A stretch of DNA of 64,000 nucleotides from an uncultured Methanosarcinales archaeon (GCA_964343575.1 CAYFJV010000002.1:395809-459808), one strand, 5' to 3'. Positions 5,231 to 54,128 are shown, counted from the stretch's first letter. Numbers and translations: made by a program. Notes: a model not told the origin generated them from the sequence alone.

Positions 5231-5815
5231 ATGGCAAGTTTTACTGATTTGATTTTCCTGGCGCAGGATTCAGGTATCCTAGATTTTCTGCTTCCTTTCA
5301 TACTTGTTTTTGTAGTGGTTTTGGCTGCATCACAAAGAATACGGATGTTTGATACAAACCCCCGCTATAGGATAGTGATTGCGATAGTTGCCGCGACATC
5401 TTTTGTCGTTCCCCATATTTTAGGAACTTATCCCGTTGGCTATGATCCAGTAGAAGTTGTGTACACCGCCATGCCAAGTGTGGTGCTCCTATCTGTAGTT
5501 GTTCTTATGGCTCTTATCATCCTAGGAATGTTTGGGAATCCTGCAGACCAAGACAGTATTTTTACTTCAATACAACCTTATCTCACTGGGGTTTGCTTTT
5601 TGGTAGTCCTCTTTATTTTTGGTGAGGCATTGAATCTTTACCAGTATCCAGATTTTATGAACTGGTTTACTTCAGATTTGCTCGAGCTTGTCCTTGTGAT
5701 TGGAGTCTTTGCGCTTGTTGTTTATTTTATCACTGGAAACGGAGAGACTGCTGAAGAGAGAGGGAGAAGGAGACAAAGAGAGCAACAACAGCAACAACAA
5801 CAACGTAATCCATAG
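5231..5815 (+). CDS. small integral membrane protein, paralog 2 (poly-Gln C-terminus)
   Basis: Paralogous to 4572..5147 (LDFLLPFILVFVVVLAASQR); C-terminal RQREQQQQQQQRNP encoded by a CAA/CAG repeat. Confidence 0.6.
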   Translation: MASFTDLIFLAQDSGILDFLLPFILVFVVVLAASQRIRMFDTNPRYRIVIAIVAATSFVVPHILGTYPVGYDPVEVVYTAMPSVVLLSVVVLMALIILGMFGNPADQDSIFTSIQPYLTGVCFLVVLFIFGEALNLYQYPDFMNWFTSDLLELVLVIGVFALVVYFITGNGETAEERGRRRQREQQQQQQQRNP

Positions 5816-13707: not shown

Positions 13708-13817
13708 TGGGGCTGCAGGGATTTGAACCCTGAACACCTAGATTTCAAAAACATTCACAAAAATTAGCGAATGCGCCTACTTCAGTCTAGTGCTCTTCCA
13801 GATTGAGCTACAGCCCC
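13708..13817 (-). tRNA. tRNA-Phe (anticodon GAA) with an intron of about 36 nt at the canonical 37/38 position
   Basis: Manual fold: acceptor GGGGCTG/CAGCCCC, D arm GCTC/GAGC, anticodon stem CTAGA/TCTAG, loop CU-GAA-G, T arm CAGGG-TTCAAAT-CCCTG, discriminator A. 43 nt lie between the anticodon-stem strands, which equals 7 loop nt plus about 36 intron nt. Confidence 0.65.
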
Positions 13818-35283: not shown

Positions 35284-35742
35284 ATGGAATTAGATGTTTA
35301 CGGCTCAAAAAAAGAGGAGCTTATTGCTCTTACTTCAGAAGAGATACTTCATTTTTTTTCTCAAATCCGTAATCGAAAACAGCGACTTTTGTTAATTCTT
35401 CATTATGCAACTGGAATGGCACTGGAAGAGATATTGCAGCTTCGAGCAGGGGCTCTTTGCAGCGCTTATGGTTTTGCTTGGGTGCAAGGGAGAAGAGGAG
35501 AAGTACTTTATCTAAGTCCCAAATTACATATTGCCTTGGAAGAGTGGGTATTTCTTCAGCAACTTCATCAGGATGATTTTCTTTTTCCTTTGCGCCAGAG
35601 TGAACTTCGTGATTTTTTCTCTTTTGAGAGACATTTAGCTTTGCTTCGTAGGCGAGCTGGCTTTTCTGAAGATCTGGTAGAAGATAGCTTTCGGGAGGCT
35701 GCTCGAAAGTACCTTCTTGAACAAGGATATTGTTGTCTTTAG
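35284..35742 (+). CDS. tyrosine-recombinase-like C-terminal fragment with degenerate catalytic residues (probable integrase remnant or pseudo-recombinase)
   Basis: LILHYATGMALEEILQLR resembles box I but lacks the conserved Arg; HLALLRRRAGFSEDLV...ARKYL resembles box II with His and Tyr present but the HxxR Arg replaced; only 152 aa. Confidence 0.45.
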   Translation: MELDVYGSKKEELIALTSEEILHFFSQIRNRKQRLLLILHYATGMALEEILQLRAGALCSAYGFAWVQGRRGEVLYLSPKLHIALEEWVFLQQLHQDDFLFPLRQSELRDFFSFERHLALLRRRAGFSEDLVEDSFREAARKYLLEQGYCCL

Positions 35743-43719: not shown

Positions 43720-43843
43720 CTTCTTCCCTCCTAGTTGTTTAGTTTAATAATTTTTTAGTTAATTTTTTTATGTATAGTAAGCTCTGTTTTAGTTTTTGGA
43801 AATTTCTCCCTCTTTTTTTACTTTTGTATCCTTAAAATTGTTT

Positions 43844-43907
43844 GGCATAACGATGTTATATTCTGGACTTCATGTTCGGAGCAATCTGAGCATAGCGAAG
43901 ATTGAAG
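43844..43907 (+). repeat. repeat element copy A (degenerate): ATAACGATGTTAT box present, hairpin decayed
   Basis: GGCATAACGATGTTATA followed by a decayed stem and a ...GCATAGCGAAGATTGAAG tail homologous to the other copies. Confidence 0.6.
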
Positions 43908-44027
43908 TATGACTTAGAGAAAAAGCTTTTTGCGAATATATTATAAGTTGTCTAATTAAAATGAATTGAAATATTTTTGCTACTTGTGAATGGATAAATT
44001 TATAATTGGAATTAATACCCAACCAGT

Positions 44028-44597
44028 ATGTCAAAATTATATCGTTTAGAAAATGGGGTCATTGAGATAATTGATGGTAATATTGCTGATTATGTTGGAG
44101 TAGAATCTTTAGTTTGTCCCACAACCCCAGGTTTGTTGATTGGAAATGTAGGAACGACTCGTGCCATAAAGGACAGGGCAGGTAGAGAATTTTTGGAAGA
44201 TGTCGATGAATTGCGCAGAAGAATAGGGTCGGCTCATCCCCAAGATGCATACGTGGTTAAACCAGGAAACATTCCAATTGATCGGATAGTTTTATCTGTA
44301 TGTGGATATGATCACAGAACCCCTTCAAGTGGAGTGTCATCTAATCCAGACATGGTACAGGGGGCAACAATGAATGCGTTACGGGTAGCACACGAAGCTG
44401 GTCTCAAGTCAATCGGATTCTCAGCACTAGGAACTGGAAACGGTGGAGTTTCCTTAGATGATGGCATTTCAAGAATGTTACATGAGTTTGGGAAACATTT
44501 ATTGGGAAAAACTTCAATGGAGAAACTTGGACTAATTCTTTATGGTAGTAGGGCATATTCAGTTGCACAGAAACATGCAGATGCGATGCTGACATAA
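44028..44597 (+). CDS. macro domain protein (ADP-ribose binding or processing)
   Basis: N-terminal I.IIDGNIADY..VESLVCPTTPGLLIGNVGTTRAIKDRAG and a later SIGFSALGTGNGGVS correspond to the macro-domain Gly-rich and catalytic loops. Confidence 0.55.
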   Translation: MSKLYRLENGVIEIIDGNIADYVGVESLVCPTTPGLLIGNVGTTRAIKDRAGREFLEDVDELRRRIGSAHPQDAYVVKPGNIPIDRIVLSVCGYDHRTPSSGVSSNPDMVQGATMNALRVAHEAGLKSIGFSALGTGNGGVSLDDGISRMLHEFGKHLLGKTSMEKLGLILYGSRAYSVAQKHADAMLT

Positions 44598-44636
44598 TGC
44601 CGTCCAACTAAAAACTTTTTCTCAAGTAATAATCCC

Positions 44637-44705
44637 ACTTAACGATGTTATGCCCCCTGGACTTTATGTCCAGGTCGAGGCGCAGCCGAGAAGTTAGAAG
44701 TTGGT
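44637..44705 (+). repeat. repeat element copy B (type 1)
   Basis: CTTAACGATGTTATG, hairpin CCTGGAC-TTTAT-GTCCAGG, tail TCGAGGCGCAGCCGAGAAGTTAGAAGTTGG. Confidence 0.8.
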
Positions 44706-44727
44706 AATAGTTAACTATAAGTGCACG

Positions 44728-45504
44728 CTATTTAGTCATTACAAAAATTTTGCAAGGTACGTTAAATTGAATGTCTTCTTTATGTTCTTGGAATTTTAGA
44801 GATTTTCTTAATATTTTAGGAAATCTTTTTCTAATGAATTCATTTAGGTAACGTAGTTTTTCTTTGTCATTGTGAAGTTCAGATTCTAATATCTTCTTAG
44901 AAGAAAATCTGTAGTCTATAGTATGAAATTCTTTGATTTTAGTAAAGTTTGCTTTTTTCATGGTTTCCAAAAATTCATCTTCTCTAAAGAAGTATCTTTT
45001 TCTTATAAGCATTTCAAAACCAGCAAGTTCGTCTTTCTTTCTGATAATATCTTGAAATAACATTTGATTTTCACCATTAAACATTATATTCCAAATAACT
45101 AACTTGCCATTTGGTTTTAAAATTCTAAATACTTCTTTAGAAATTTTTAATTGTTCATTTTTGGATACTTCATGTAAACCCATTTTAATGACTACTTTAT
45201 CAAAAAATTCATTTTCATAATTTGATTTATGGAGAGATTCAACGACAAAATGATCTTTTGCAAGTTTTGGAAGATTTTCTCTTGCTCTTTTTATCTGAAC
45301 TTCACTCTTATCTAAAAGAAAAAGATTGACAGCATTTTCTTTCTCTAAAATTCCCTTGCCTACCGCACCATAACCGCACATGGCGTCAAGAATTGTTTCA
45401 TTTGGTTTGGGATCTATTGCTTCAATTAATTTAGCCCAATCGTCTGGTTTTATACTATGTATCTGTTCATATGAAACAATCCTTATATCATATCCATGCG
45501 CCAT
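44728..45504 (-). CDS. class I SAM-dependent methyltransferase
   Basis: Motif I ILDAMCGYGAVG, post I LLDKS, motif IV-like LKPNGKLVIWN. Confidence 0.7.
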   Translation of the reverse strand: MAHGYDIRIVSYEQIHSIKPDDWAKLIEAIDPKPNETILDAMCGYGAVGKGILEKENAVNLFLLDKSEVQIKRARENLPKLAKDHFVVESLHKSNYENEFFDKVVIKMGLHEVSKNEQLKISKEVFRILKPNGKLVIWNIMFNGENQMLFQDIIRKKDELAGFEMLIRKRYFFREDEFLETMKKANFTKIKEFHTIDYRFSSKKILESELHNDKEKLRYLNEFIRKRFPKILRKSLKFQEHKEDIQFNVPCKIFVMTK

Positions 45505-45572
45505 TATTTGATTAAAATTTTTGTAACTTTAAAAAGCTTAGCGTGCACTACATACTACCAACTTCTAATTGA

Positions 45573-45622
45573 GCTTAACGACGTTATGCTTTCTGCGAAG
45601 CAGATCGAGCAAAGTGAGAAGT
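45573..45622 (+). repeat. repeat element copy C (variant with a short GAA-loop hairpin)
   Basis: GCTTAACGACGTTATG, hairpin TCTGC-GAA-GCAGA, tail TCGAGCAAAGTGAGAAGTT. Confidence 0.7.
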
Positions 45623-45707
45623 TTTCTTACTGTATTTGCCAACTAATTAATAACTGCTTTAGCAGACAAAATATGCGTAGCATGGGGGGAGTTCCAAATA
45701 ATTAATA

Positions 45708-46439
45708 TTAGTAATTAGTACAAAAATCTATGAATGCTCTTCCTAATGGAGTTAACCTTCCGGAGACAATACGAAAACCCATTGAAGATGTCATTGTTCC
45801 AAATATGCTTTTATCTGTATTAAATAATCCCATCTGATAGATTTCTCCATATGCGGATTTGATCATATCTAAATCAATCCCAGGTAGAGCCGCTTGAAAA
45901 ACTTTTCCAATTGCAGCCATTTGAACTGGATCTTTATCTAAATTATGAAACTCAAAATAAGCATCTGGATTATTAGATATAGAAATAATTCTTAAGTGTA
46001 GATCACTTAAATTGTTAACTAGATGTAAAAAATATTCTTTTTGCTCACTTTTTAGATTATATCTTAAAGAATTTATGATTATTCCTTTGTAACAGAATAT
46101 TTTTTGTTTTTGGTAATTTGATAAGACACCTCTTATAGATTCTTCAAAAATAAATGCAAATTCTTCTGTTTTTATATAATCAACATTTGTAGAATTAATC
46201 TGTTGGTGGTGTTCTTCAAGTTTAATTGTCAAATCTCTAATAAAATTATGGAGGCGCTTCTCTTTTTTTTTAGGAATGTAATCTCCAATTAATGAAGATA
46301 TTGGACCACCAATTAGTGGGATTGCAGAAAGGCTCGCTTTAATTACATTTACAAAATGATCTCTTGCTGGAGTGTGATCTAATGATGGCTTTATACTAAA
46401 TTCTACACCTTTAACAATTTCAACTTTATTTTCATTCAT
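45708..46439 (-). CDS. hypothetical protein
   Basis: 243-aa ORF, overlaps the start of the downstream gene by 4 bp (operon). Confidence 0.5.
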   Translation of the reverse strand: MNENKVEIVKGVEFSIKPSLDHTPARDHFVNVIKASLSAIPLIGGPISSLIGDYIPKKKEKRLHNFIRDLTIKLEEHHQQINSTNVDYIKTEEFAFIFEESIRGVLSNYQKQKIFCYKGIIINSLRYNLKSEQKEYFLHLVNNLSDLHLRIISISNNPDAYFEFHNLDKDPVQMAAIGKVFQAALPGIDLDMIKSAYGEIYQMGLFNTDKSIFGTMTSSMGFRIVSGRLTPLGRAFIDFCTNY

Positions 46440-46798
46440 TTTCTTTCTTCACGATAAAGCCAAACCCCTACTATTGTTAAGAAAAGGCTTGCGATGTACC
46501 AGATAATATAGGCCCAGTGGAATTGAGCTGAAAAGAGAATTGGCAATGAAATTCCGATGATCAATGAAAGAATCCCTGCCCAAACTAAAACTAATGGCAT
46601 ACCCCCTTTGTCATGTACTTTTACTGTTTCAGAAGCAATTACTTTTGTAAATTTTCCTAATTCAGCCATTGCAGATGATTCTTGGCTTCTTTCATCATTT
46701 TGACATTCCATGCATAAGGGTAAATTAAAATTTTTCTTTGAGAATTTGAAAACTTTTTCAGAGATATTTTTCTTACACTTGTTACAATATAACACCAT
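46436..46798 (-). CDS. zinc-ribbon plus 2-TM small membrane protein
   Basis: CNKC...CMEC four-Cys N-terminus followed by 2 hydrophobic helices. Confidence 0.5.
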   Translation of the reverse strand: MVLYCNKCKKNISEKVFKFSKKNFNLPLCMECQNDERSQESSAMAELGKFTKVIASETVKVHDKGGMPLVLVWAGILSLIIGISLPILFSAQFHWAYIIWYIASLFLTIVGVWLYREERK

Positions 46799-46898
46799 GA
46801 TCTAGTTATGTAACTAATCTTTATTAAATATTATCATTCTACAGGAACTCCCCTCATTTTTAAAAGTTGGCAAATACTTTTTACAGTAAGAAAATTAA

Positions 46899-46971
46899 GC
46901 ATAACGATGTTATGTCCCCCAGACTTTACGTCTGGGTCGAGGAGCGTAGCGACGAGAAGTTGAGAGATGAG
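46899..46971 (+). repeat. repeat element copy D (type 1)
   Basis: GCATAACGATGTTATG, hairpin CCCAGAC-TTTAC-GTCTGGG, tail TCGAGGAGCGTAGCGACGAGAAGTTGAGAG. Confidence 0.8.
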
Positions 46972-47431
46972 CGACCAAGAAGCCTCTCATTTTCAGCACG
47001 GGAAAAGATTTGCGGAAACACGCACAGAATTTAGCAAAGATCTTCATTGATTATTTTTTGTTTTTTTTGTTGTTTTATTTTAAAAAAAATGATCCTTCTG
47101 AAGATGCGAAATTGTTTCCTACAAATCAGTTTTTGTCGTCGTAGAAAAGTTAAATTTCTTTGAAAAATCATGCTTATCAAAAGGCAAAAAATCCACAAAA
47201 TTTTAATGCAAATTTTCAAAATTATCGAGCATAAAAACCTCAAAAAGTTTCTTATGATGCGCAGAATAATGCAGAAAATTTTGATGAGAAAAGTGGATTT
47301 TTTGCACAAGAATTGTTTAATGATTTTTCAAGACAAAAAGAAAATTCATCGACGACAAAATTCCAGAAAAGTGCTGAAAATGATGCAGAAAAAGGCTTCC
47401 CATTTACATAAAAAGCTCATCTCTCAATTGG

Positions 47432-47503
47432 ACATAACGATGTTAAGCTTCGGGGGCTTTACGCCCCCGCAAGGAGCTTTAGCGACGCAGAGTTTTTTGA
47501 GAC
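47432..47503 (+). repeat. repeat element copy E (type 2)
   Basis: ACATAACGATGTTAAG, hairpin CGGGGGC-TTTAC-GCCCCCG, GCAAGG, tail ...GCAGAGTTTTTTGAGAC. Confidence 0.8.
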
Positions 47504-47513
47504 ATATAGAAAG

Positions 47514-48269
47514 TTATTTTTTAGCCTGACTCCATAATAAATTGAAGAACACTTTGTATGTTTGAGCAAAGTTTTCGTCTTTAATTAATAAGCCGTAAGG
47601 TTCTTTTCCGTAAGTAATAAGGAAAAAGTAATCGTTTAAAACCCCATACTCTGTTTTTGTATTTACATTCATGTATCTTACTTCGGTAAGAGGCATTTTT
47701 TCTCTAATAGGCCCCCATTTCTTTCCAATTTTATTGATTAAGATTTTTAGTTTTACTTTGTCTTTAATTCTTTTCTTGTGAACTACCTCTAAGAAAAATC
47801 CCTCTAATTTGCTGAATGATTCTAATGGTGCAGAAGCAATGAAATATTCATCTCCTGTTTTCCATGAGTTGATAATTTCAGTGTATAATGATTTAATTCC
47901 TCTAATTCCTGAAAAATATTTGAAGTCACTTAATTTAGATATTCCACTTGGCTTTACTTTTAGTTTAGAAATGAAATCTAAAAGTTGATCTTTTTCCTGT
48001 TCAATTTGCTTCTCTTTCTCCACAAATAGATTGGCTAAAGAATCAGGATCAGAAGCACGAAAGACTTTGATGTTATTTACAATCTTAAAATTAACTAAGC
48101 CTTTCTCCGAGAGGCTGTTAAGGATTGTGTAAATCTGAGAGCTTGGAATCTTCGTTCTTTCGCAGATTTTTCCTGTTCGGCTTTCTCCATGTTGTTGGAG
48201 ATCTAAGTAGGTTAAAGCTTCTCTTTCTGATAATCCCGCTGATTTTAAGGCTTCTACATTGTTTTCCAT
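47514..48269 (-). CDS. TrmB-family transcriptional regulator
   Basis: N-terminal winged-HTH (LSEREALTYLDLQQHGESRTGKICERTKIPSSQIYTILNSLSEKGLV) plus a C-terminal TrmB-like domain; 251 aa. Confidence 0.6.
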   Translation of the reverse strand: MENNVEALKSAGLSEREALTYLDLQQHGESRTGKICERTKIPSSQIYTILNSLSEKGLVNFKIVNNIKVFRASDPDSLANLFVEKEKQIEQEKDQLLDFISKLKVKPSGISKLSDFKYFSGIRGIKSLYTEIINSWKTGDEYFIASAPLESFSKLEGFFLEVVHKKRIKDKVKLKILINKIGKKWGPIREKMPLTEVRYMNVNTKTEYGVLNDYFFLITYGKEPYGLLIKDENFAQTYKVFFNLLWSQAKK

Positions 48270-48344
48270 ATTACTACTAATGCAATTAGTAGCGAATATT
48301 TATAAACTTTTCTGTGAATTTTATATTCACTAATTAGTGATAAA

Positions 48345-49370
48345 ATGACTTCGGAAAAGAAAATACCAAAATTGGAATTTACGGAGGAGCGAATAACTTC
48401 TCTTGTAGAGAAATTAGTAGATGATGATACGCTAATTGTAACTGATTCATATGGATTTCCAACTCTGAGCCAACTTGGTAGAACTGCACTTGTTCGTGAT
48501 TGTTATGCTGAAGATGTTGAAGAGATTAAAAGCGGGAATGAGTATTCAAAAGTTCTTGCTGTTGGTGGCTGTACTGCTTTAGATGTTGGAAGGGCCTGTG
48601 CTGTTGGTAAAGAAGTCGTTACAATCCCTACTATTCTTTCTACTTCTTGTATAAGTGTAGATAGAAGTATTATCAAATATCCAGAAGGAAGTAGACTGGA
48701 GAAAACTGTTGCTCCAACGAGAACAATCGTAAGTATTCCTAGTATTGCTGAAACACATATAGCAGATTTGGAAAAATGGTCGCAATCTGGGTTTGGAGAT
48801 TTGTTTGCAAACATAAGCGCTTCTATTGATCTACAATACGAAGTTGGTAATCTTAGTTATGAAGCAGTAAGAAATAATGTTCCAGAATGTTTTGAAGCTC
48901 TTGAGTGGGTAATCAATCAATTTCAAGGTTATGATGAAGATTGCTTGAGAAGATTGGCAACATATTCTCATAATTCATCTTTAATCGTTATAGAAAGAGA
49001 AGATACCAAACTGAGTGCTGCTGGAGAACACAAGCTCTATCATAAAATGATTGACCAGCAAAAGCAGTACAGAGAAGATAGACCAACACATGGTCAATTA
49101 GTTGCTCTTGGAACATTACTTGCTGGAAGAATTTATACAAAACAATCAGGAGAACAAAAACTCTATGAGCAATTAGTTACAGCTTATGAAAAACTAGGTT
49201 TGCCTCTGAGCTATGCTGAACTTCATGATATCGGAATAGAACGAGAGCATATTGTTGATGGTTTGAAAAGCATAGCAGGAAGTAACACTCATTTAGGAGA
49301 TCACTTCGCTCAAGGCGATTATTCTCTCTTAGATAGAGTTTTTGGTGGTGGAAAAAATGAAAAAGTTTGA
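48345..49370 (+). CDS. DHQS-like / iron-containing alcohol dehydrogenase superfamily protein (glycerol-(1-phosphate) dehydrogenase-like)
   Basis: VLAVGGCTALDVGRA (GGG..D..K-type NAD motif) and TIPTILSTSCIS (PTtaS-like) motifs. Confidence 0.55.
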   Translation: MTSEKKIPKLEFTEERITSLVEKLVDDDTLIVTDSYGFPTLSQLGRTALVRDCYAEDVEEIKSGNEYSKVLAVGGCTALDVGRACAVGKEVVTIPTILSTSCISVDRSIIKYPEGSRLEKTVAPTRTIVSIPSIAETHIADLEKWSQSGFGDLFANISASIDLQYEVGNLSYEAVRNNVPECFEALEWVINQFQGYDEDCLRRLATYSHNSSLIVIEREDTKLSAAGEHKLYHKMIDQQKQYREDRPTHGQLVALGTLLAGRIYTKQSGEQKLYEQLVTAYEKLGLPLSYAELHDIGIEREHIVDGLKSIAGSNTHLGDHFAQGDYSLLDRVFGGGKNEKV

Positions 49371-50250
49371 GCATTTTCCACTAGAGAGCATAGATTCTGT
49401 TTTGGCAGAGATAAAACTAGATGATTATGAGCAAGCAGTTTCTGATATTTGTAATCAAATTAGTGAATACTACCAAAGACTTCCAGAGTTTGATGGAAAA
49501 AAACCAAAATTAATAATTGGATTATCTGGTGGAATTGATTCTACTATTGTAAGTTATTTGGCAACAAGAGCAGTAGGAACAGAAAATGTAATTACTGTTA
49601 ATATGCCTGCTTATGATGGAGATGAAAGCGTAGAGAAATCAAACTTAGTGAGTAGAATTTTAGGGACTGAACATTATTCAATTCCAATTAATTCAATCGT
49701 TGAAGCTGAAGTAGATAATATTAGCAAAGATTTCCCAATTGATTCAAATACTGAAACAGGAAAAATCAGAAGAGGCAATTTAGCATCAAGAGCAAGAGTA
49801 GCTGTACTTTATGATATTGCTAGAGAAGTAAATGGAAAGATTCTTGGAACAGGAAACAGAACAGAATTTGTGCAGGGCTATGCTGCTAAATGGGGAACTC
49901 CTATTTCATTTGATTTTGGAGTTTTGGATGATTTGTATAAAGTAGATGTTTATGCAATAGCCGAAGTTTTAGATGTTCCGCAAGAAATTATTGACGCTGT
50001 TCCAACTACTGGTTATTACAAAGGACAAAGCCATGAAGAAGAATTAGGAGCAACACTTGAAGAGCAAGATGTAGCAGCATATTTGCTTTTTGAAAAAGGC
50101 ATGAGTAAAGAAGCAATTGTTAAGGAATTTGGAGCTTCTGCTAATTATTTAGATTCAATGCTTCAGAGATATTCAAGAAGTGTAGATAAAAGAGTAATAA
50201 GACAGGAACATGTAACTCTTAGAAATTTTGGTGGTGAAAATGTTCAGTAA
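49342..50250 (+). CDS. nadE: NH3-dependent NAD+ synthetase (PP-loop ATP pyrophosphatase)
   Basis: PP-loop LSGGIDSTIV; the rest collinear with NadE; start overlaps the upstream gene. Confidence 0.8.
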   Translation: MVVEKMKKFEHFPLESIDSVLAEIKLDDYEQAVSDICNQISEYYQRLPEFDGKKPKLIIGLSGGIDSTIVSYLATRAVGTENVITVNMPAYDGDESVEKSNLVSRILGTEHYSIPINSIVEAEVDNISKDFPIDSNTETGKIRRGNLASRARVAVLYDIAREVNGKILGTGNRTEFVQGYAAKWGTPISFDFGVLDDLYKVDVYAIAEVLDVPQEIIDAVPTTGYYKGQSHEEELGATLEEQDVAAYLLFEKGMSKEAIVKEFGASANYLDSMLQRYSRSVDKRVIRQEHVTLRNFGGENVQ

Positions 50251-51175
50251 TTACTCTAAAGCATTAGTGATTGGAGCAGGAAGCGGAAGAGATATTGCTT
50301 CATCTGTTCTGATAACTGAAAAATTAAGAGAACAGGGGATTGATGTAGATTTAGCAGGTTTTCTGACACCATGGGCTTTGCATGAATTTGATGGAGAATT
50401 GGAAAAAACTGTAAATAAGTCATCTAAGCCAAGCAGAAAATTTATTGCTACACAAAAAGAGGTTTCTTTAGATTCATATTTTGAGCCAGAATTGCCCGAG
50501 ATAAATGAGGAATTAGGTTTGGGTATTGGCGAGATATATTTGTTTTCATTACAGCATGGAACAGAAAGCTTAAGAGAAGAATTAGAGGGATTAGTTAGAC
50601 AAAGAGATTATGATTTAATTGTTGCTGTTGATGTTGGAGGAGATATTCTTGCACATAGGCGAGATTTGGCTTCTGTTTATACTCCAATTGTTGATCTTAC
50701 TTGTTTAGAAGTATTAGCAGATTTGAAAACAACTGCTGACAAATATTTGACAGTTGTTGCTCCTGGAGTTGATGGAGAGATTCCAAGCCAGAGATTAGCT
50801 GAAATAATTGGTAATGAAAGAATTTTGAGAAGAGAACAATTAAACCCAGAAAGCAGAAATTATCAGACTTTTGTTCAAGTTTATGATGAAATTAATAGAA
50901 GAACAAAATCATCTAGTCATACAGGAGATGTAATTAGAAAGATAGTAGAGGGAAAATCAGATTTTACGGAGGAGTATAAAAGAAATGGAGTTTCATTTAC
51001 TGTTAAGTTAGATAAAGAATTAGCAAGTGGAATTTATTATTTTGATTTAGAAGCTGTTAAATCTCAGCGAAGGAGTGTTGGTGTTAGTTATGAAAATATT
51101 TCAGAAGCTCATAGGTTAATGAAGGAAATGGGGGCCAGCGGAACAGAAGTTGATTTAACGTATGTTCCAAGATAG
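50228..51175 (+). CDS. hypothetical protein, third gene of the DHQS-like/NadE operon
   Basis: 315-aa ORF whose start overlaps the nadE stop; LVIGAGSGRD and VAVDVGGD Gly-rich loops. Confidence 0.5.
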   Translation: MVVKMFSNYSKALVIGAGSGRDIASSVLITEKLREQGIDVDLAGFLTPWALHEFDGELEKTVNKSSKPSRKFIATQKEVSLDSYFEPELPEINEELGLGIGEIYLFSLQHGTESLREELEGLVRQRDYDLIVAVDVGGDILAHRRDLASVYTPIVDLTCLEVLADLKTTADKYLTVVAPGVDGEIPSQRLAEIIGNERILRREQLNPESRNYQTFVQVYDEINRRTKSSSHTGDVIRKIVEGKSDFTEEYKRNGVSFTVKLDKELASGIYYFDLEAVKSQRRSVGVSYENISEAHRLMKEMGASGTEVDLTYVPR

Positions 51176-51261
51176 TAATTAGTTCAAAGGAGTATGGGGT
51201 TTTAGTTAAAGGAGTCAGGCTCTTCGCAGAAGGTAATACTGTTTATGTCTCAAAAAATTAA

Positions 51262-51339
51262 GCTTAACGATGTTATGTGCCCATGACTTTATGTCATGGT
51301 GCGTAGCGTTAGCGGAGCAAGTTGGATTCTCATGTTGAG
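51262..51339 (+). repeat. repeat element copy F (type 1)
   Basis: GCTTAACGATGTTATG, hairpin CCATGAC-TTTAT-GTCATGG, tail TGCGTAGCGTTAGCGGAGCAAGTTGGATTCTCATG. Confidence 0.8.
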
Positions 51340-51395
51340 CGGAGGGTCGCCATTGTAGAAAAGCTTTTAAGTTTCAAACTTTTTGATTATTTAAA

Positions 51396-52019
51396 ATGAA
51401 ATTTTATTTATCATCATACAAACTTGGAGAAAAAGTTGATAAGCTTAAAGAGATGATGCCAACTGGTAAAAAGCTTGGTTATATTCCTAATGCTTTAGAT
51501 TTTTCTGGAGCTGATCCTGCACGAAGAGAACAATCAATTAAGAAAGATGTAGACGAATTAAAGAGTCTTGGTTTTGATGTAGAAGTAATTGATTTGCAAG
51601 ATTATTTTGGAAAAAATGGTGAATTAAAAAGAAAATTAGACCAATTAGGAGGAGTATTTGTTAGAGGTGGAAATACTTTTGTTTTGCGCCAAGCAATGAA
51701 ACTAAGTGGTCTTGATGAAGTTCTTAAAGGCATGAAAGATAGAGATGATTTTCTTTATTCAGGATATAGTGCAGGAATTTGTGTTTTAGCTCCAGATTTA
51801 CACTCACTTCAAATTGTTGATGATCCGAATGATACACCATATGAAGGATTAGAAAAAGTTATTTTTGAAGGATTAGGAATATTAGATTATATGATTTTAC
51901 CACATTATAAGTCAGATCATCCAGAGTCTGCTGATATAGATAAGGAAGTTGAATATTGTAAACAGCACGATGTGAAGTTTAAGACTCTGCGAGATGGTGA
52001 AGTCATAATAATTGAATAG
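51396..52019 (+). CDS. pepE: peptidase S51 family (peptidase E / alpha-aspartyl dipeptidase-like)
   Basis: VFVRGGNTFVL...GYSAGICV (catalytic Ser in the GxSAG context) pattern of S51 peptidases. Confidence 0.65.
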   Translation: MKFYLSSYKLGEKVDKLKEMMPTGKKLGYIPNALDFSGADPARREQSIKKDVDELKSLGFDVEVIDLQDYFGKNGELKRKLDQLGGVFVRGGNTFVLRQAMKLSGLDEVLKGMKDRDDFLYSGYSAGICVLAPDLHSLQIVDDPNDTPYEGLEKVIFEGLGILDYMILPHYKSDHPESADIDKEVEYCKQHDVKFKTLRDGEVIIIE

Positions 52020-52087
52020 ATGGCGACCCGATTAGGTTCTTAGAGTTTAGCTTTAGCGTACTTCTAATTACATGAGAATCCAATTGC

Positions 52088-52162
52088 ACATAACGATGTT
52101 AAGTTTCGGAGGGTTTATCCCTCCGCAAGGTTAACGTAGTTAACCGCAGAGTTGAATTTGAG
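52088..52162 (+). repeat. repeat element copy G (type 2)
   Basis: ACATAACGATGTTAAG, hairpin CGGAGGG-TTTAT-CCCTCCG, GCAAGG, second hairpin GGTTAAC-GTA-GTTAACC, tail GCAGAGTTGAATTTGAG. Confidence 0.8.
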
Positions 52163-52266
52163 TTTTCCTATTAATCCTGCTTTAGCAGACATACGTTTAG
52201 GGGCTTTCCAAACACATTAATTTAAGGGGCTTTGGTTTTCATCATTATTTAGGAGTAATTTTATAA

Positions 52267-53013
52267 ATGGCTTGTTTTTTCTTTATTATTATGGATTTAA
52301 GAACAATAGCAGACAGATTTGTAGAAATTGGAGAAAGATTCCCTGGGCCATATATTGATTCAGGTATGCCATGTTTTGGTAGAGATTTCACTGGAATTTC
52401 TGCAAATTTGGGAGCAGGAGAAGTATATAATACTCAAGATTCTGCTTACCAATTAGTCTTATCAATTTCTATGGCAGATCATCCTGTTATCGCTGATGTT
52501 CTTGGATTACCCAAATATGATGGTGATGATGAATCTATTGCTCGTGTTGTTGGAAGAATGACTGAAGAAAAAATTCTTGATGGGGTGAGGATTTTAGATT
52601 TGGGTTGTGGATTAATTCCAACATTTGCACGATCTGCAAGAAGATTAGGAGCAGATGTTTACACCGTTGATGTAATTTTGCCTACTGCTTTTGAATATTC
52701 CAGAGAACTTTTTCCAGAAGATGCAAGAGATGCTGAACAAAAAGATCACTTTGCAATTGATTTAAACCAAAGAAATGCAGGTAAAAAAATTGCTAAGAAG
52801 TTTGGTTCTGATTTTGATTTAGTAACTTCAGCATATATTGAAGAAGGAGCACATTTTGGTTGTGGAATTGAAGCACATTTTTATGGTGGTTCAGGTTTTG
52901 CAAAACAATTTCTAGGACAAAATGGTGTTTATTTTGGGACACATGCTTCTGGAATATTAGTTCAAGGTAATCAGTTTGTGAAAACAGAGTTAGGGAAAGT
53001 GACATCTGATTAA
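52267..53013 (+). CDS. putative class I SAM-dependent methyltransferase
   Basis: Motif I ILDLGCGLIPTFARSARRLGADVYTVD. Confidence 0.5.
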   Translation: MACFFFIIMDLRTIADRFVEIGERFPGPYIDSGMPCFGRDFTGISANLGAGEVYNTQDSAYQLVLSISMADHPVIADVLGLPKYDGDDESIARVVGRMTEEKILDGVRILDLGCGLIPTFARSARRLGADVYTVDVILPTAFEYSRELFPEDARDAEQKDHFAIDLNQRNAGKKIAKKFGSDFDLVTSAYIEEGAHFGCGIEAHFYGGSGFAKQFLGQNGVYFGTHASGILVQGNQFVKTELGKVTSD

Positions 53014-53279
53014 ACCAAAGCCCCCACATAGTTTTTTTCATTCTAGTTTTTATCATCAAGGAAAGCCCCGTCATCTTAAAACTCAAATTCAATTAAACTT
53101 AACTCGTTATATCTAAACTTTTAGGATTTGGCCCCCTTCGTAGTCGAATTTCTTCGTTTTAAACAGCCCATAAAGTGTTATACTGACTTCTCTTTTTGGT
53201 AGTAAATATATAATGTACCCAATATCTCACAAGACAATCTTGGTTCCTGTTTAAATAGAAGCTCATTACATGAGCATCT

Positions 53280-54128
53280 ATGGATGTTGCAGGAATAATT
53301 CAAAGAAAAGCACTTCTTTTAGGTTTGAGACCAAACACTATTAAAACATATACTGCTATTGTACAAAGATTTTTGAGAAAATACAAGTTAAATGTTTGGG
53401 AAGTAACTACAAAAGATATCGAAAAACACTTACTTGTTTTACTGGAGAAAAATAAATCTGGGAGCTCAGTTAATGTACATCTTAATGCCTTAAAATTCTT
53501 CTTTGAGAAGTGTTTAGGTAAAAGAGTAACGCTTAATATGAAGTTCACAAAGCAAAGAAGAAAGTTGCCTACATTTCTCACACAAGAAGAGATAATCTTT
53601 TTTCTTGAGGTAATTGAAAACAGAAAACATAAGCTAATGATTTCTTTACTTTACTCTGCGGGTTTACGGGTTAGCGAATTGCTGGATTTGAAAGTTAGAG
53701 ATCTAGAGCTTTCTAAGAATCATGGTTGGGTGCGTGATGGGAAAGGGGGGAAAGAGAGGCCATTCATCATTGCTGAGAGGATCAGATTAGATCTAGAGAA
53801 TTGGTTGTTTGAACAAAGACTTAACGATTGTGATTATTTGTTTGGTAACAAGGGGAGAAAGATGAGTACACAAACAGTAAGGAAGATTATTCATAACACA
53901 AAGAAGAAAGCAAGAATTAAGAAGAATATTGGCCCACATAGTTTAAGACACTCTTTTGCAACACATTTCTTAGAGCAAGGCAATGCTCTAACTGAATTGC
54001 AACCCCTACTTGGACATAGCAGAATTGAGACAACTCTTGTTTATTCGCATATGGCATCGCCACAATTGTTAAAGATGCAAAGCCCATTTGACAATCTAGA
54101 GATTAATAATGAGAAGAGATTGAAATGA
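53280..54128 (+). CDS. tyrosine recombinase / integrase (XerC/XerD/XerA family)
   Basis: Box I SAGLRVSELLDLKVRDL, box II HSLRHSFATHFLEQG...LLGHSRIETTLVYSHM with R-H-R-Y catalytic residues; 282 aa. Confidence 0.85.
   Translation: MDVAGIIQRKALLLGLRPNTIKTYTAIVQRFLRKYKLNVWEVTTKDIEKHLLVLLEKNKSGSSVNVHLNALKFFFEKCLGKRVTLNMKFTKQRRKLPTFLTQEEIIFFLEVIENRKHKLMISLLYSAGLRVSELLDLKVRDLELSKNHGWVRDGKGGKERPFIIAERIRLDLENWLFEQRLNDCDYLFGNKGRKMSTQTVRKIIHNTKKKARIKKNIGPHSLRHSFATHFLEQGNALTELQPLLGHSRIETTLVYSHMASPQLLKMQSPFDNLEINNEKRLK

Follow-up and report, generated by a model that had tools for sequence, protein, structure and literature searches.

Archaeal gene cassettes bracketed by the two halves of a predicted hairpin-forming site

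A 64,000-nt window, the whole stretch of DNA that was analysed (CAYFJV010000002.1:395809-459808), contains a row of seven gene cassettes next to a Xer-type tyrosine recombinase gene in a DPANN (Woesearchaeota/Nanoarchaeota-type) archaeon, and the inverted repeats that bracket each cassette are the two halves of that cassette's own predicted hairpin-forming recombination site. We read the region as an integron-like or IMEX-like cassette platform run by a Xer-type recombinase, in which a central crossover splits the palindromic att site of each cassette, and we put the probability of this reading at roughly 0.7. Recombination activity and the mobility of the cassettes are inferred. Our literature searches returned no prior description of this layout, in agreement with the initial annotation, which knew of no archaeal system so arranged.

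The initial annotation's observation, that every gene module between consecutive repeat elements is bracketed by its own module-specific inverted repeat, holds, and all of the repeat pairs it listed are present in the sequence. Seven modules lie between eight directly repeated sites (43848-53118). Seven of these sites are copies of a ~57-72-nt core carrying the invariant anchor TAACGATGTTA (TAACGACGTTA in core C), and the eighth, H, is divergent (Table 1). When every downstream flank was aligned against the reverse complement of every upstream flank, the cognate pair scored highest in its row for all 7 modules, with scores of 26-39 against 12-27 for non-cognate pairs. The arms always begin in one register, i.e., the right arm starts at the TT after ..(A/G)AG and the left arm ends at AA, 7 nt before TAAC. 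Two corrections to the initial annotation are needed. First, the last module also has a canonical outer arm, TTGAATTTGAGTTTT, which had been missed; the nested GGGGCTTTCC/GGGGCTTTGG pairs that were cited for it are a second, inner stem. Second, Pfam finds no domain in the gene that had been called a second methyltransferase, in which only a DLGCG-type motif is visible.

Table 1. Sites, arms and genes of the cassette array and its neighbouring recombinase gene (positions within the window)
Positions	Strand	Feature	Anchor start	Partner arm	Outer arm pairing	Content and remarks
43839-43903	+	Core A, left end of the array	43848			Left part (GTTTGGCATAA) atypical and chromosomal, right part cassette-type; no partner arm for its left flank in the upstream 24 kb
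43908-43930	.	Arm a of cassette 1		44610-44631	23 nt, 1 gap, 2 mismatches	Macro-domain gene 44028-44597 (Pfam Macro)
44631-44695	+	Core B	44640
44694-44751	.	Arm a of cassette 2		45514-45568	About 58 nt with gaps (score 39)	SAM methyltransferase gene 44728-45504, minus strand (Pfam)
45567-45623	+	Core C	45576			Anchor variant TAACGACGTTA, short hairpin
45622-45697	.	Two-part arm a of cassette 3		46844-46894	22 nt with a bulge, plus the inner pair GGGGAGTTCC	Two unknown genes 45708-46798, minus strand; outer stem, CTGCTTTAGCAG hairpin, inner GGGGGGAGTTCC
46893-46961	+	Core D	46902
46960-46972	.	Arm a of cassette 4		47415-47427	13/13 nt	AT-rich, apparently non-coding, 46962-47420
47426-47494	+	Core E	47435
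47493-47506	.	Arm a of cassette 5		51244-51257	14 nt, exact or near-exact	TrmB-like gene (minus strand), Fe-ADH-like, NAD synthase, DUF1152, 47514-51175; inner pairs 47524-47534/51212-51222 and 47637-47681/51160-51204
51256-51323	+	Core F	51265
51322-51335	.	Arm a of cassette 6		52070-52083	14 nt, exact or near-exact	Peptidase S51 gene 51396-52019; inner stem GGGTCGCCAT/ATGGCGACCC
52082-52153	+	Core G	52091
52152-52166	.	Arm a of cassette 7		53078-53092	15/15 nt	248-aa ORF 52267-53013, no Pfam hit; inner nested stems 52199/53060 and 52224/53015
53091-53118	+	Site H, dif-like terminal site				AATTAAACTTAA-CTCGTT-ATATCTAAAC; cassette-type left arm, its own spacer and its own right arm
53280-54128	+	XerA-like tyrosine recombinase gene				282 aa; same orientation as the cores

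The same arrays are carried by related DPANN contigs (loci on these are given L numbers below), and the rule holds beyond the window. In 62 cassettes from related arrays, the cognate score has a median of 29, whereas the null from non-cognate pairs has a mean of 16.2 and a 99th percentile of 24, and 85% of the cognate pairs exceed that percentile. Of 60 cassettes, 43 have arms in the canonical register, with a median ungapped arm of 13 bp. In 68 cassettes, the complementarity starts inside the conserved core: the five variable bases flanking the anchor are all Watson-Crick paired in 59% of cassettes when the left half of the downstream core is paired with the right half of the upstream core, as opposed to 1.5% within one core and 5% for random pairs. 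The two arms flanking any one core are thus not complementary, as they would be if a core had inserted into a pre-existing palindrome. The suggestion in the initial annotation of cassettes inserted into palindromic sites therefore has the logic reversed, since the palindrome belongs to the cassette's own att site and, in our reading, is split on integration.

The position of the crossover is indicated by recent cassette duplicates, which end inside the invariant sequence. A 919-nt cassette duplicated within PCXY01000003 (93% identity) is identical from GCATAACGATGTTA of one core to ..CATAACGATGTTA of the next, and not beyond. A 99.8% duplicate in L078 is identical through ..TGCATAAC, after which one copy continues into an H-type spacer and the other into a core spacer. 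In addition, several homology blocks between genomes end within about 20 nt of anchors, most within 12 nt. Nevertheless, some older homologous cassettes have unrelated core right parts or arms, and identical arms also flank unrelated genes (the arms of cassette 3 occur in L033 around unrelated genes, and those of cassette 6 in L074 and L032 around other genes), so there are further breakpoints or turnover that the simple model does not explain.

Joining the ends of a cassette in silico gives a 24-bp hairpin (15 + 9 bp, loop GAT) with side hairpins, which shows strong Watson-Crick covariation. The reconstituted junctions fold as P1+P2+P3 with z-scores of -4.3 to -8.0, while the cores in their array context give only -1.4 to -2.6. 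P1 is a variable stem of about 13 bp or more that continues directly into P2, a 9-bp stem whose inner 4 bp (TAAC/GTTA) and loop (GAT) are invariant, and a side branch of 45-50 nt holds P3, a G+C-rich hairpin with loop TTTAY, and usually a further small hairpin. P3 is exactly 7 bp, 89-95% paired, with 50 distinct stems. A consensus fold of 36 junctions has compensatory changes in 25 of 31 pairs; of all cells, 96.6% are paired against 62.9% after shuffling, the covariation score is 0.81 against 0.17, and slid controls give 34-47% paired. G·T pairs make up only 1-2% of pairs.

The near absence of G·U-type pairs in the covarying stems argues against RNA. We considered whether the cores could be structured RNA genes or processing signals between genes otherwise fixed in place, or small MITE-like or intron-like mobile elements inserted into intergenic palindromes, given that they are conserved, structured ~70-nt repeats in intergenic positions and that the T-rich start of many arms could act as an archaeal terminator. 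However, no Rfam family matches, and the gene content between the cores differs completely among related genomes while the recombinase and H stay fixed. Together with the lack of complementarity across single cores, this makes such readings unlikely.

The initial annotation also raised the possibility of recombinase-invertible segments, i.e., a shufflon or phasevarion. The bracketing inverted repeats, the methyltransferase genes and the nearby tyrosine recombinase speak for it, but it is not supported, and we consider it very unlikely. The only conserved recombination sites are direct repeats, with all anchors on the + strand, whereas the inverted repeats differ in sequence between modules and share no recombinase-binding motif. 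Homologous cassettes in other genomes, as well as the duplicates, move as anchor-to-anchor units, and three assemblies of this organism show a single orientation.

The recombinase gene lies downstream of the last core, in the same orientation, in L032, L072, L078, L118, L057, L069, L145, L148 and L138, and in L147 with a variant anchor, so that the association appears in about 10 independent genomes. An H-type site was identified by eye between the array and the gene in seven of these loci (not in L057, L069 or L148), and upstream of the gene in L146, where no cores were found; H is thus conserved upstream of the recombinase gene in at least 8 genomes. H has an 11-6-11 geometry and shares only the first spacer base with the cores, but this base co-varies between H and the cores (C/C here, T/T in L147). 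The array has 33-35% G+C against 40-42% in the flanks, and its cassettes carry accessory-type genes on both strands and no recombinase of their own. The third suggestion of the initial annotation, an integron-like cassette array with a tyrosine recombinase at its right end, is therefore right in the broad sense, and its interpretation as a whole is partly supported.

The recombinase itself was compared with the XerA and IntI families. It scores 210.3 bits against the NCBIfam XerA model NF040815, just under the cut-off of 220, and gives collinear matches to the XerA structures 5hxy and 4a8e (E about 1e-36) with the catalytic R-K-H-R-H-Y residues aligned. In contrast, the integron integrase model TIGR02249 scores 178 bits against a cut-off of 265, in two stretches, and the alignment to IntI4 (2a3v) breaks, with query residues 175-195 spanning IntI4 residues 180-242 (20 query residues opposite 62), so that the roughly 40-residue IntI-specific insertion around patch III is lacking. 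At 282 aa, the protein is also shorter than the IntI models (315-337 aa).

A canonical integron (IntI plus attI plus attC cassettes), as reported for Archaea in 2022, is thus very unlikely, despite the tandem cassettes next to a tyrosine recombinase and a distinct primary site, the AAC...GTT triplets in the anchor, and the name of the NCBIfam XerA model, "site-specific tyrosine recombinase/integron integrase". The sites are not R''-L''...L'-R' hairpins lying wholly between cassettes at the 3' end of each, the RRR/YYY consensus is not kept, and the crossover is central rather than at G|TT of R'. Integron cassettes are mostly co-oriented and promoterless, expressed from Pc, but four of the ten cassette genes here are on the minus strand. 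A published Nanoarchaeota attC (ACATAAC...GTTATGG, about 60 nt) has a different architecture, and the anchor is absent from the supplementary text of that paper.

Taken together, we propose that the array was assembled by site-specific recombination, most likely by the XerA-like recombinase encoded immediately downstream. In this view, each cassette, when circular, carries one att site that is a long imperfect palindrome, and the crossover lies in the invariant sequence at the tip of P2, at or next to CATAA|C. Integration would split the palindrome and leave one half at each end of the cassette, such that every core in the array is a hybrid of the left half of one cassette's site and the right half of the next, while H plays the role of attI. 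The anatomy, the cognate pairing, the position of the crossover, the covariation and the association with the recombinase and with H across genomes are shown by the analysis. That this recombinase is the catalyst is inferred, and its assignment rests on adjacency only. It is likewise an inference, from covariation alone, that the site is used as folded DNA (a hairpin or cruciform, as for integron attC or CTX-phage attP), and we also infer that integration at H proceeds by exchange of a single strand pair resolved by replication, and that core x core recombination excises and reshuffles cassettes. We would like to note that there is no direct sign of activity, as the three assemblies of this organism show the same cassette order and no circular junctions, empty sites or population heterogeneity were recovered. 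Furthermore, because the spacer of H differs from that of the cores except at the first base, a classical two-strand Xer exchange between them would be impeded.

A possible, more tentative sub-variant of this explanation differs in what the system is for. Here, the array would consist of IMEX-type elements at the true chromosomal dif, the recombinase would simply be the housekeeping XerA, H would be the functional dimer-resolution site, and the cassettes would be parasites of Xer/dif rather than parts of a dedicated capture system. H has dif geometry and dif-like arms (for example, L138 has TGCATAA-CTCGTC-TTATGTAAAC; E. coli dif is GCGCATAA-TGTATA-TTATGTTAAAT). The left arm of core A (GTTTGGCATAA) and the right arm of H (..ATATCTAAAC) together look like the two arms of one imperfect palindrome, although this was judged by eye without an estimate of chance. 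The closeness to XerA structures fits this reading, xerA/dif modules are reported for some archaea (PMC5357621), and the recombinase-Nre gene order is shared with PCXY01000003. On the other hand, GC skew does not change sign at the locus, so H is not shown to be the chromosomal dif at a replication terminus, and no empty dif was found. The genes downstream of the recombinase also differ among genomes (Nre, ThrRS, Hef, S7/S12, Lhr), and elaborate covarying hairpins are not a feature of known double-stranded IMEX attP sites.

Among known systems, integrons, including the archaeal integrons of Ghaly et al. 2022 (PMC9668308), share with this region a tandem array of promiscuous accessory-gene cassettes next to a Xer-related tyrosine recombinase and a distinct primary site. 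In both, each cassette carries one imperfectly palindromic site whose stems covary while their sequence is free, the start of a cassette is complementary to the far end of the same cassette, and there are cassette duplicates, ORF-less cassettes and families of sites. In contrast to integrons, the recombinase here lacks the IntI-specific domain and is closest to XerA, and the conserved part of the site is central with the variable stems outside, the reverse of attC. With the crossover at the hairpin tip rather than at G|TT at the base, 22 bp or more (up to about 85 bp) of each palindrome arm is separated to the two cassette ends, instead of 6-7 bp. A 45-50-nt branch with its own hairpins is present, and genes are in both orientations, so presumably each has its own promoter.

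IMEX-type elements (CTX-phi, TLC-phi, VGJ-phi, GGI) at bacterial dif resemble the cassettes in having no recombinase of their own (reliance of the cassettes on the adjacent enzyme being inferred), in sitting in tandem at a dif-like site, and in an attP-like site with one good Xer-type arm and a degenerate other arm. Spacer homology to the primary site is limited to the cleavage-proximal base, as in CTX-phi, where one strand pair is exchanged and replication resolves the junction, and which uses a folded single-stranded attP. However, the units here are small gene cassettes (81 nt to about 6 kb, median about 1.1 kb) rather than phages or islands, the system is archaeal with a single recombinase, the predicted site is a cloverleaf-like hairpin with the crossover at its tip, and H is next to the recombinase gene. 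The single-recombinase modules XerS/difSL and XerH/difH and archaeal XerA/dif likewise have one Xer-type gene directly next to its 11-6-11 type site, but they are known for dimer resolution and are not known to carry arrays of gene cassettes with structured secondary sites. Finally, the pdif modules of Acinetobacter are discrete gene modules bounded by Xer-type sites, but pdif sites are plain 28-bp sites that alternate in orientation around each module, whereas here all sites are direct repeats and the module-specific inverted repeats are not the Xer sites.

The window holds seven copies of a conserved element of about 57-72 nt, all on the + strand and each marked by the invariant anchor TAACGATGTTA (one copy has TAACGACGTTA), and an eighth, divergent site (H) lies about 160 nt upstream of a tyrosine-recombinase gene. 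We refer to the seven copies as cores A to G, from left to right. We aligned the flank downstream of each element against the reverse complement of the flank upstream of every other element, and for all seven modules the cognate pair scored highest in its row (26-39 against 12-27). The arms always start in the same register, i.e., the right arm begins at the TT that follows ..(A/G)AG, and the left arm ends at AA, 7 nt before TAAC. The layout described in the initial annotation, in which each module is bracketed by its own inverted repeat and the brackets of neighboring modules are separated by a conserved core, is therefore real, and the observation was confirmed and strengthened by our analysis. 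That annotation missed the canonical arm pair of the last module, which matches at 15 of 15 positions, and described only its inner nested stems.

The modules carry, in order, a macro-domain gene; a SAM methyltransferase (minus strand); two unknown genes (minus strand); an AT-rich stretch with no convincing gene; a four-gene block of TrmB-like (minus strand), Fe-ADH-like, NAD synthase, and DUF1152 genes; a peptidase S51; and a 248-aa protein. The last of these had been called a second methyltransferase, but it has no Pfam match at E <= 0.01 and only a DLGCG-type, SAM-binding-like motif is visible in its translation, so that assignment remains putative. Within the AT-rich fourth cassette, a 72-nt stretch is 82% identical to part of a cassette in L111 (numbers with the prefix L denote loci compared with the window), which suggests a conserved non-coding function. 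TrmB-like regulators 24-34% identical to that of the window recur in loci that carry these arrays (L112, L097, L123, L078, L113, L029, L065, and L042), counted whether or not the gene lies inside a cassette, and they may be a favored cargo or may be functionally linked to the system. The array has 33-35% G+C, against 40-42% in the flanks on both sides. To its left is a DUF2200 gene, and to the right of the recombinase is Nre. Elsewhere in the window, Rfam calls a 110-nt tRNA that ARAGORN does not report and that is probably an intron-containing archaeal tRNA.

Features of the window and of compared loci, with positions in the window unless a locus is named
Feature	Location	Strand	Description
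Core A anchor	starts at 43848	+	leftmost core
Core B anchor	starts at 44640	+	
Core C anchor	starts at 45576	+	
Core D anchor	starts at 46902	+	
Core E anchor	starts at 47435	+	
Core F anchor	starts at 51265	+	
Core G anchor	starts at 52091	+	
Site H	53091-53118		eighth, divergent site
Recombinase gene	53280-54128	+	tyrosine recombinase
Canonical arm pair of the last module	52152-52166 against 53078-53092		15/15
TrmB-like gene	47514-48269	-	first gene of the four-gene block
Cassette 4	46962-47420		AT-rich, no convincing gene
Stretch similar to L111	46991-47059		matches L111 1561-1632
ORF of last module	52267-53013		248-aa protein
Small recurrent hairpin	45654-45667 and 52177-52190		also in L033 and L056
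Motif downstream of H	53160-53180		also in L072, L145, L146, L147, and L138
Base-composition comparison	44000-53000		array against the flanks
Truncated or degenerate recombinase paralogue	35284-35742	+	152-aa ORF
Rfam tRNA	13708-13817	-	110 nt
L147 variant anchor and H-type site	L147 1133, 5077, 6342, 6624, and about 9830		
Mini-cassette of L097	L097 (oriented) 5305-5386		about 81 nt

The recombinase (282 aa) has Phage_integrase and SAM_4 domains. Its best family match is archaeal XerA, at 210 bits against a cut-off of 220, and it hits the integron-integrase model only in two pieces. It aligns collinearly with the XerA structures 5hxy and 4a8e, and the catalytic residues line up. In contrast, 20 of its residues face 62 residues of IntI4 in the alignment with that integrase, so the IntI-specific insertion is absent, and we regard the protein as a Xer-type enzyme and not an IntI. 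A second, 152-aa ORF within the window matches only the middle of XerA/IntI models (profile positions about 90-192) and lacks the catalytic C-terminus, making it a truncated or degenerate tyrosine-recombinase paralogue. Its upstream region contains CACTGGCCACAGGACAG, which resembles the CCACTGGTCA/CACTGGACA motif seen upstream of the array-linked recombinase genes in other loci.

The element belongs to a family. A scan of one genome per species with the pattern TAACGATGTTAWG-N10-TTTAY returned many DPANN MAGs (Woesearchaeota, Pacearchaeota, and Nanoarchaeota) with several hits per contig, plus single chance hits in bacteria, and a profile built from the seven window copies found about 110 copies, including 12 in 16 kb of PCXY01000003, 10 in JAHJGQ010000097, 7 in L097, and 6 in L074. 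Several MAGs titled "uncultured Methanosarcinales" (L017, L023, L033, L056, L058, and others) also carry these arrays, which are otherwise found in Woesearchaeota and Nanoarchaeota MAGs, so that either the bins or labels are doubtful or the element has a wider host range. The cognate-arm rule holds in these arrays too, with a median cognate score of 29 against a null with a mean of 16.2 and a 99th percentile of 24, and 85% of 62 cassettes exceed that percentile. In 43 of 60 cassettes the arms start in the canonical register, with a median ungapped length of 13 bp. Cassette size runs from 81 nt to 5.9 kb, with a median of about 1.1 kb. At the lower end are "empty" mini-cassettes of about 81 nt in L097 and about 130 nt start-to-start in L118 (between the last core and H, with roughly 60 nt between the sites), which consist only of a core plus a short palindrome. 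A double-stranded circle of 81 bp is unlikely, and these mini-cassettes point either to single-stranded intermediates or to deletion of the cassette interior. A scan of viral contigs with the core pattern gave 11 single hits without the hairpin, which we take as chance, leaving no sign of the cassettes on known viral contigs, and a metagenome scan seeded with the recombinase returned only distant relatives (37% identity or less) and no arrays. In L018, a possible array end without a recombinase turned out to be degenerate cores inside a continuing array.

Three lines of evidence agree on the position of the crossover. First, a cassette duplicated within PCXY01000003 (93% over 919 nt) is identical from GCATAACGATGTTA of its left core to ..CATAACGATGTTA of its right core, and the copies are unrelated beyond those points. 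Second, a 99.8% duplicate in L078 is identical through ..AATTCTGCATAAC, after which one copy continues into an H-type site (TCTTTTTATGCGG) and the other into an ordinary core (GGTGTTATGTCC). Third, homology blocks between different genomes repeatedly end within about 20 nt of anchors, most within 12 nt. The unit that moves therefore runs from anchor to anchor, and the breakpoint is inside the invariant sequence, at or next to CATAA|C, and not at the arm boundary, as it would be in an integron. Our first working model was integron-style, with the crossover at G|TT at the arm boundary, and it was rejected on the basis of these duplicate boundaries and of the cognate pairing described next.

The inverted repeat starts at the crossover, since the five variable bases on each side of the anchor pair with each other only across a cassette. 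When the left half of the downstream core is paired with the right half of the upstream core, all five are Watson-Crick in 59% of 68 cassettes, whereas the figure is 1.5% within one core and 5% for random pairs. We then joined the two ends of each window cassette in silico. The junction folds as a stem P1 (the arms plus AATT/AGTT) running without a break into a 9-bp stem P2 with loop GAT, plus a 7-bp hairpin P3 and usually a small further hairpin, with z-scores of -4.3 to -8.0, while the cores as they stand in the array give -1.4 to -2.6. A consensus fold of 36 such junctions from many genomes has 31 pairs, 25 of them with compensatory double changes. Of all cells, 96.6% are paired against 62.9% after shuffling, the covariation score is 0.81 against 0.17, and slid controls give 34-47% paired. 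We would like to note that these 36 junctions came from a set chosen for matching arms, so that P1 is partly selected, while P2 and P3 are not. P3 alone, measured without any alignment, is exactly 7 bp and 89-95% paired, with 50 different stems. A separate small hairpin, CTGCTTTAGCAG, recurs at a fixed 78-88 nt from the anchor in four independent cassettes (two in the window and those of L033 and L056), often followed by GCGTAGCA and a G-run that forms the inner stem with the far end of the cassette. G·T pairs are about as rare as other mismatches, at 1-2%, with the exception of one conserved T·G at the P1/P2 junction, present in 35 of 36 junctions. RNA-level readings, such as processing stems or circular RNAs, are unlikely given that G·U-type pairs are almost absent, and Rfam searches of the core at gathering and at permissive thresholds found only tRNAs or noise, so the core is not a described RNA family. 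Strict Watson-Crick covariation with free sequence points instead to pairing within a DNA strand (hairpin or cruciform), and not to an RNA or a protein-binding palindrome, although this last step is an inference.

This accounts for the layout. In this view each cassette owns one long palindromic att site with the crossover at its center, the two halves land at opposite ends of the cassette on integration, and each conserved core in the array is a hybrid of two cassettes' halves. The interpretation offered in the initial annotation is thus supported in part: an integron-like array is upheld, while inversion of the modules or insertion into palindromes is not. The bracketing layout, the cognate pairing, and the breakpoint are what the sequences show, whereas folding within a DNA strand, the recombination steps considered below, activity of the array, and the identity of the catalyst are inferred.

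In the window and in L032, L072, L078, L118, L057, L069, L145, L148, and L138, the XerA-like gene follows the last core in the same orientation, and the same holds in L147, a relative whose recombinase is 56% identical and whose anchor variant is TAATCAATGTTA. Between the array and the gene lies an H-type site, identified by eye in the window and in seven of these loci plus L146; none was found in L057, L069, or L148. It consists of a cassette-type left arm (ATTNNNC[A/T]TAA), its own 6-nt spacer (CTCGTT, CTCCCT, CTCGTC, CTCTTT, CATGTT, or TGCCCT), and its own right arm ([A/T]TAT[G/C]NAAAC), which is the 11-6-11 geometry of dif sites. The L138 version, TGCATAA-CTCGTC-TTATGTAAAC, resembles bacterial dif, although the comparison rests on geometry and on the E. 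coli dif sequence rather than on published archaeal dif sequences (Cortez 2010; Serre 2013). A conserved motif, CC(A/G)TAAA(T/G)(G/T)GATAT (in the window, CCCATAAAGTGTTATAC), lies about 50-90 nt downstream of the H-type site in several genomes, before the recombinase promoter, and may be a further binding or regulatory site.

H and the cores of one genome share only the first spacer base, C/C in the window and T/T in L147. L147 uses a different anchor and its H-type site has the spacer TGCCCT, so anchor and primary site co-vary between lineages. Core A keeps the cassette-type spacer but has a non-cassette left arm, GTTTGGCATAA, which looks like the palindromic partner of H's right arm. A search for a partner arm upstream, which would mark a further cassette to the left of core A, found nothing above the null, and A is therefore the array end. 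This pattern is what exchange of a single strand pair at the left-arm/spacer boundary would leave, with the junction then resolved by replication, as is known for CTX-phi at dif1 and for attC x attI (review PMC5357621). Because cores share identical spacers, core x core recombination could be complete and could excise or reshuffle cassettes.

Some findings do not fit this picture readily. GC skew stays positive across the locus with no terminus-like inversion at H, so H cannot be said to be the chromosome's dif, and the gene downstream of the recombinase varies between genomes. No empty site and no circular junction was found, and neither three assemblies of this organism nor four assemblies from different samples carrying the identical 75%-related recombinase show any differences. 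Some older homologous cassettes carry unrelated core right parts or arms. Furthermore, the same two-part arms bracket unrelated genes, as the arms of the window cassette between cores C and D recur in L033 and those between cores F and G recur in L074 and L032. The description of the inverted repeats as module-specific in the initial annotation thus really means that they are drawn from families of sites, as with attC families, and there is turnover that we cannot explain. The most likely nature of the region is a Xer-type, integron-analogous cassette platform with split hairpin att sites.

A bolder reading, which we hold tentatively and consider slightly less likely than not, is that this is a previously undescribed gene-capture platform widespread in DPANN archaea, in effect a "Xer-integron", in which a XerA-family recombinase without the IntI domain recombines cloverleaf- or hairpin-forming cassette sites at the hairpin tip, next to a dif-like primary site. 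It would be an independent, or ancestral-like, route from Xer/dif dimer resolution to integron-type cassette capture. How integrons arose from Xer-type recombinases, and where attC sites come from, are open questions, and a system with the logic of an integron but with a Xer-like enzyme, a dif-like primary site, and a differently built folded att site offers a second, comparable solution to study. It would also name a mechanism for accessory-gene flux in the small genomes of DPANN archaea, as arrays were found in dozens of MAGs, and it would add a compact, structure-defined recombination site and enzyme pair that could be tested as a tool. The reading makes concrete predictions, testable with oligonucleotides and one purified protein, on the cleavage position, the use of single-stranded versus double-stranded substrate, the need for cognate arms, and the conserved T·G mismatch.

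Literature searches on archaeal integrons, XerA/dif, IMEX, and Xer and cassettes in DPANN archaea and Woesearchaeota found no description of this layout, which, given the incomplete literature searched, is absence of evidence only. The archaeal integrons published in 2022 have canonical attCs and IntIs, and the anchor does not occur in the supplementary text of that paper. The system works like an integron and like IMEX arrays, but it departs from an integron in each of four defining respects, namely the IntI domain, the attC architecture, the crossover position, and gene co-orientation. It is not a shufflon or a pdif-module system, because all conserved sites are direct repeats.
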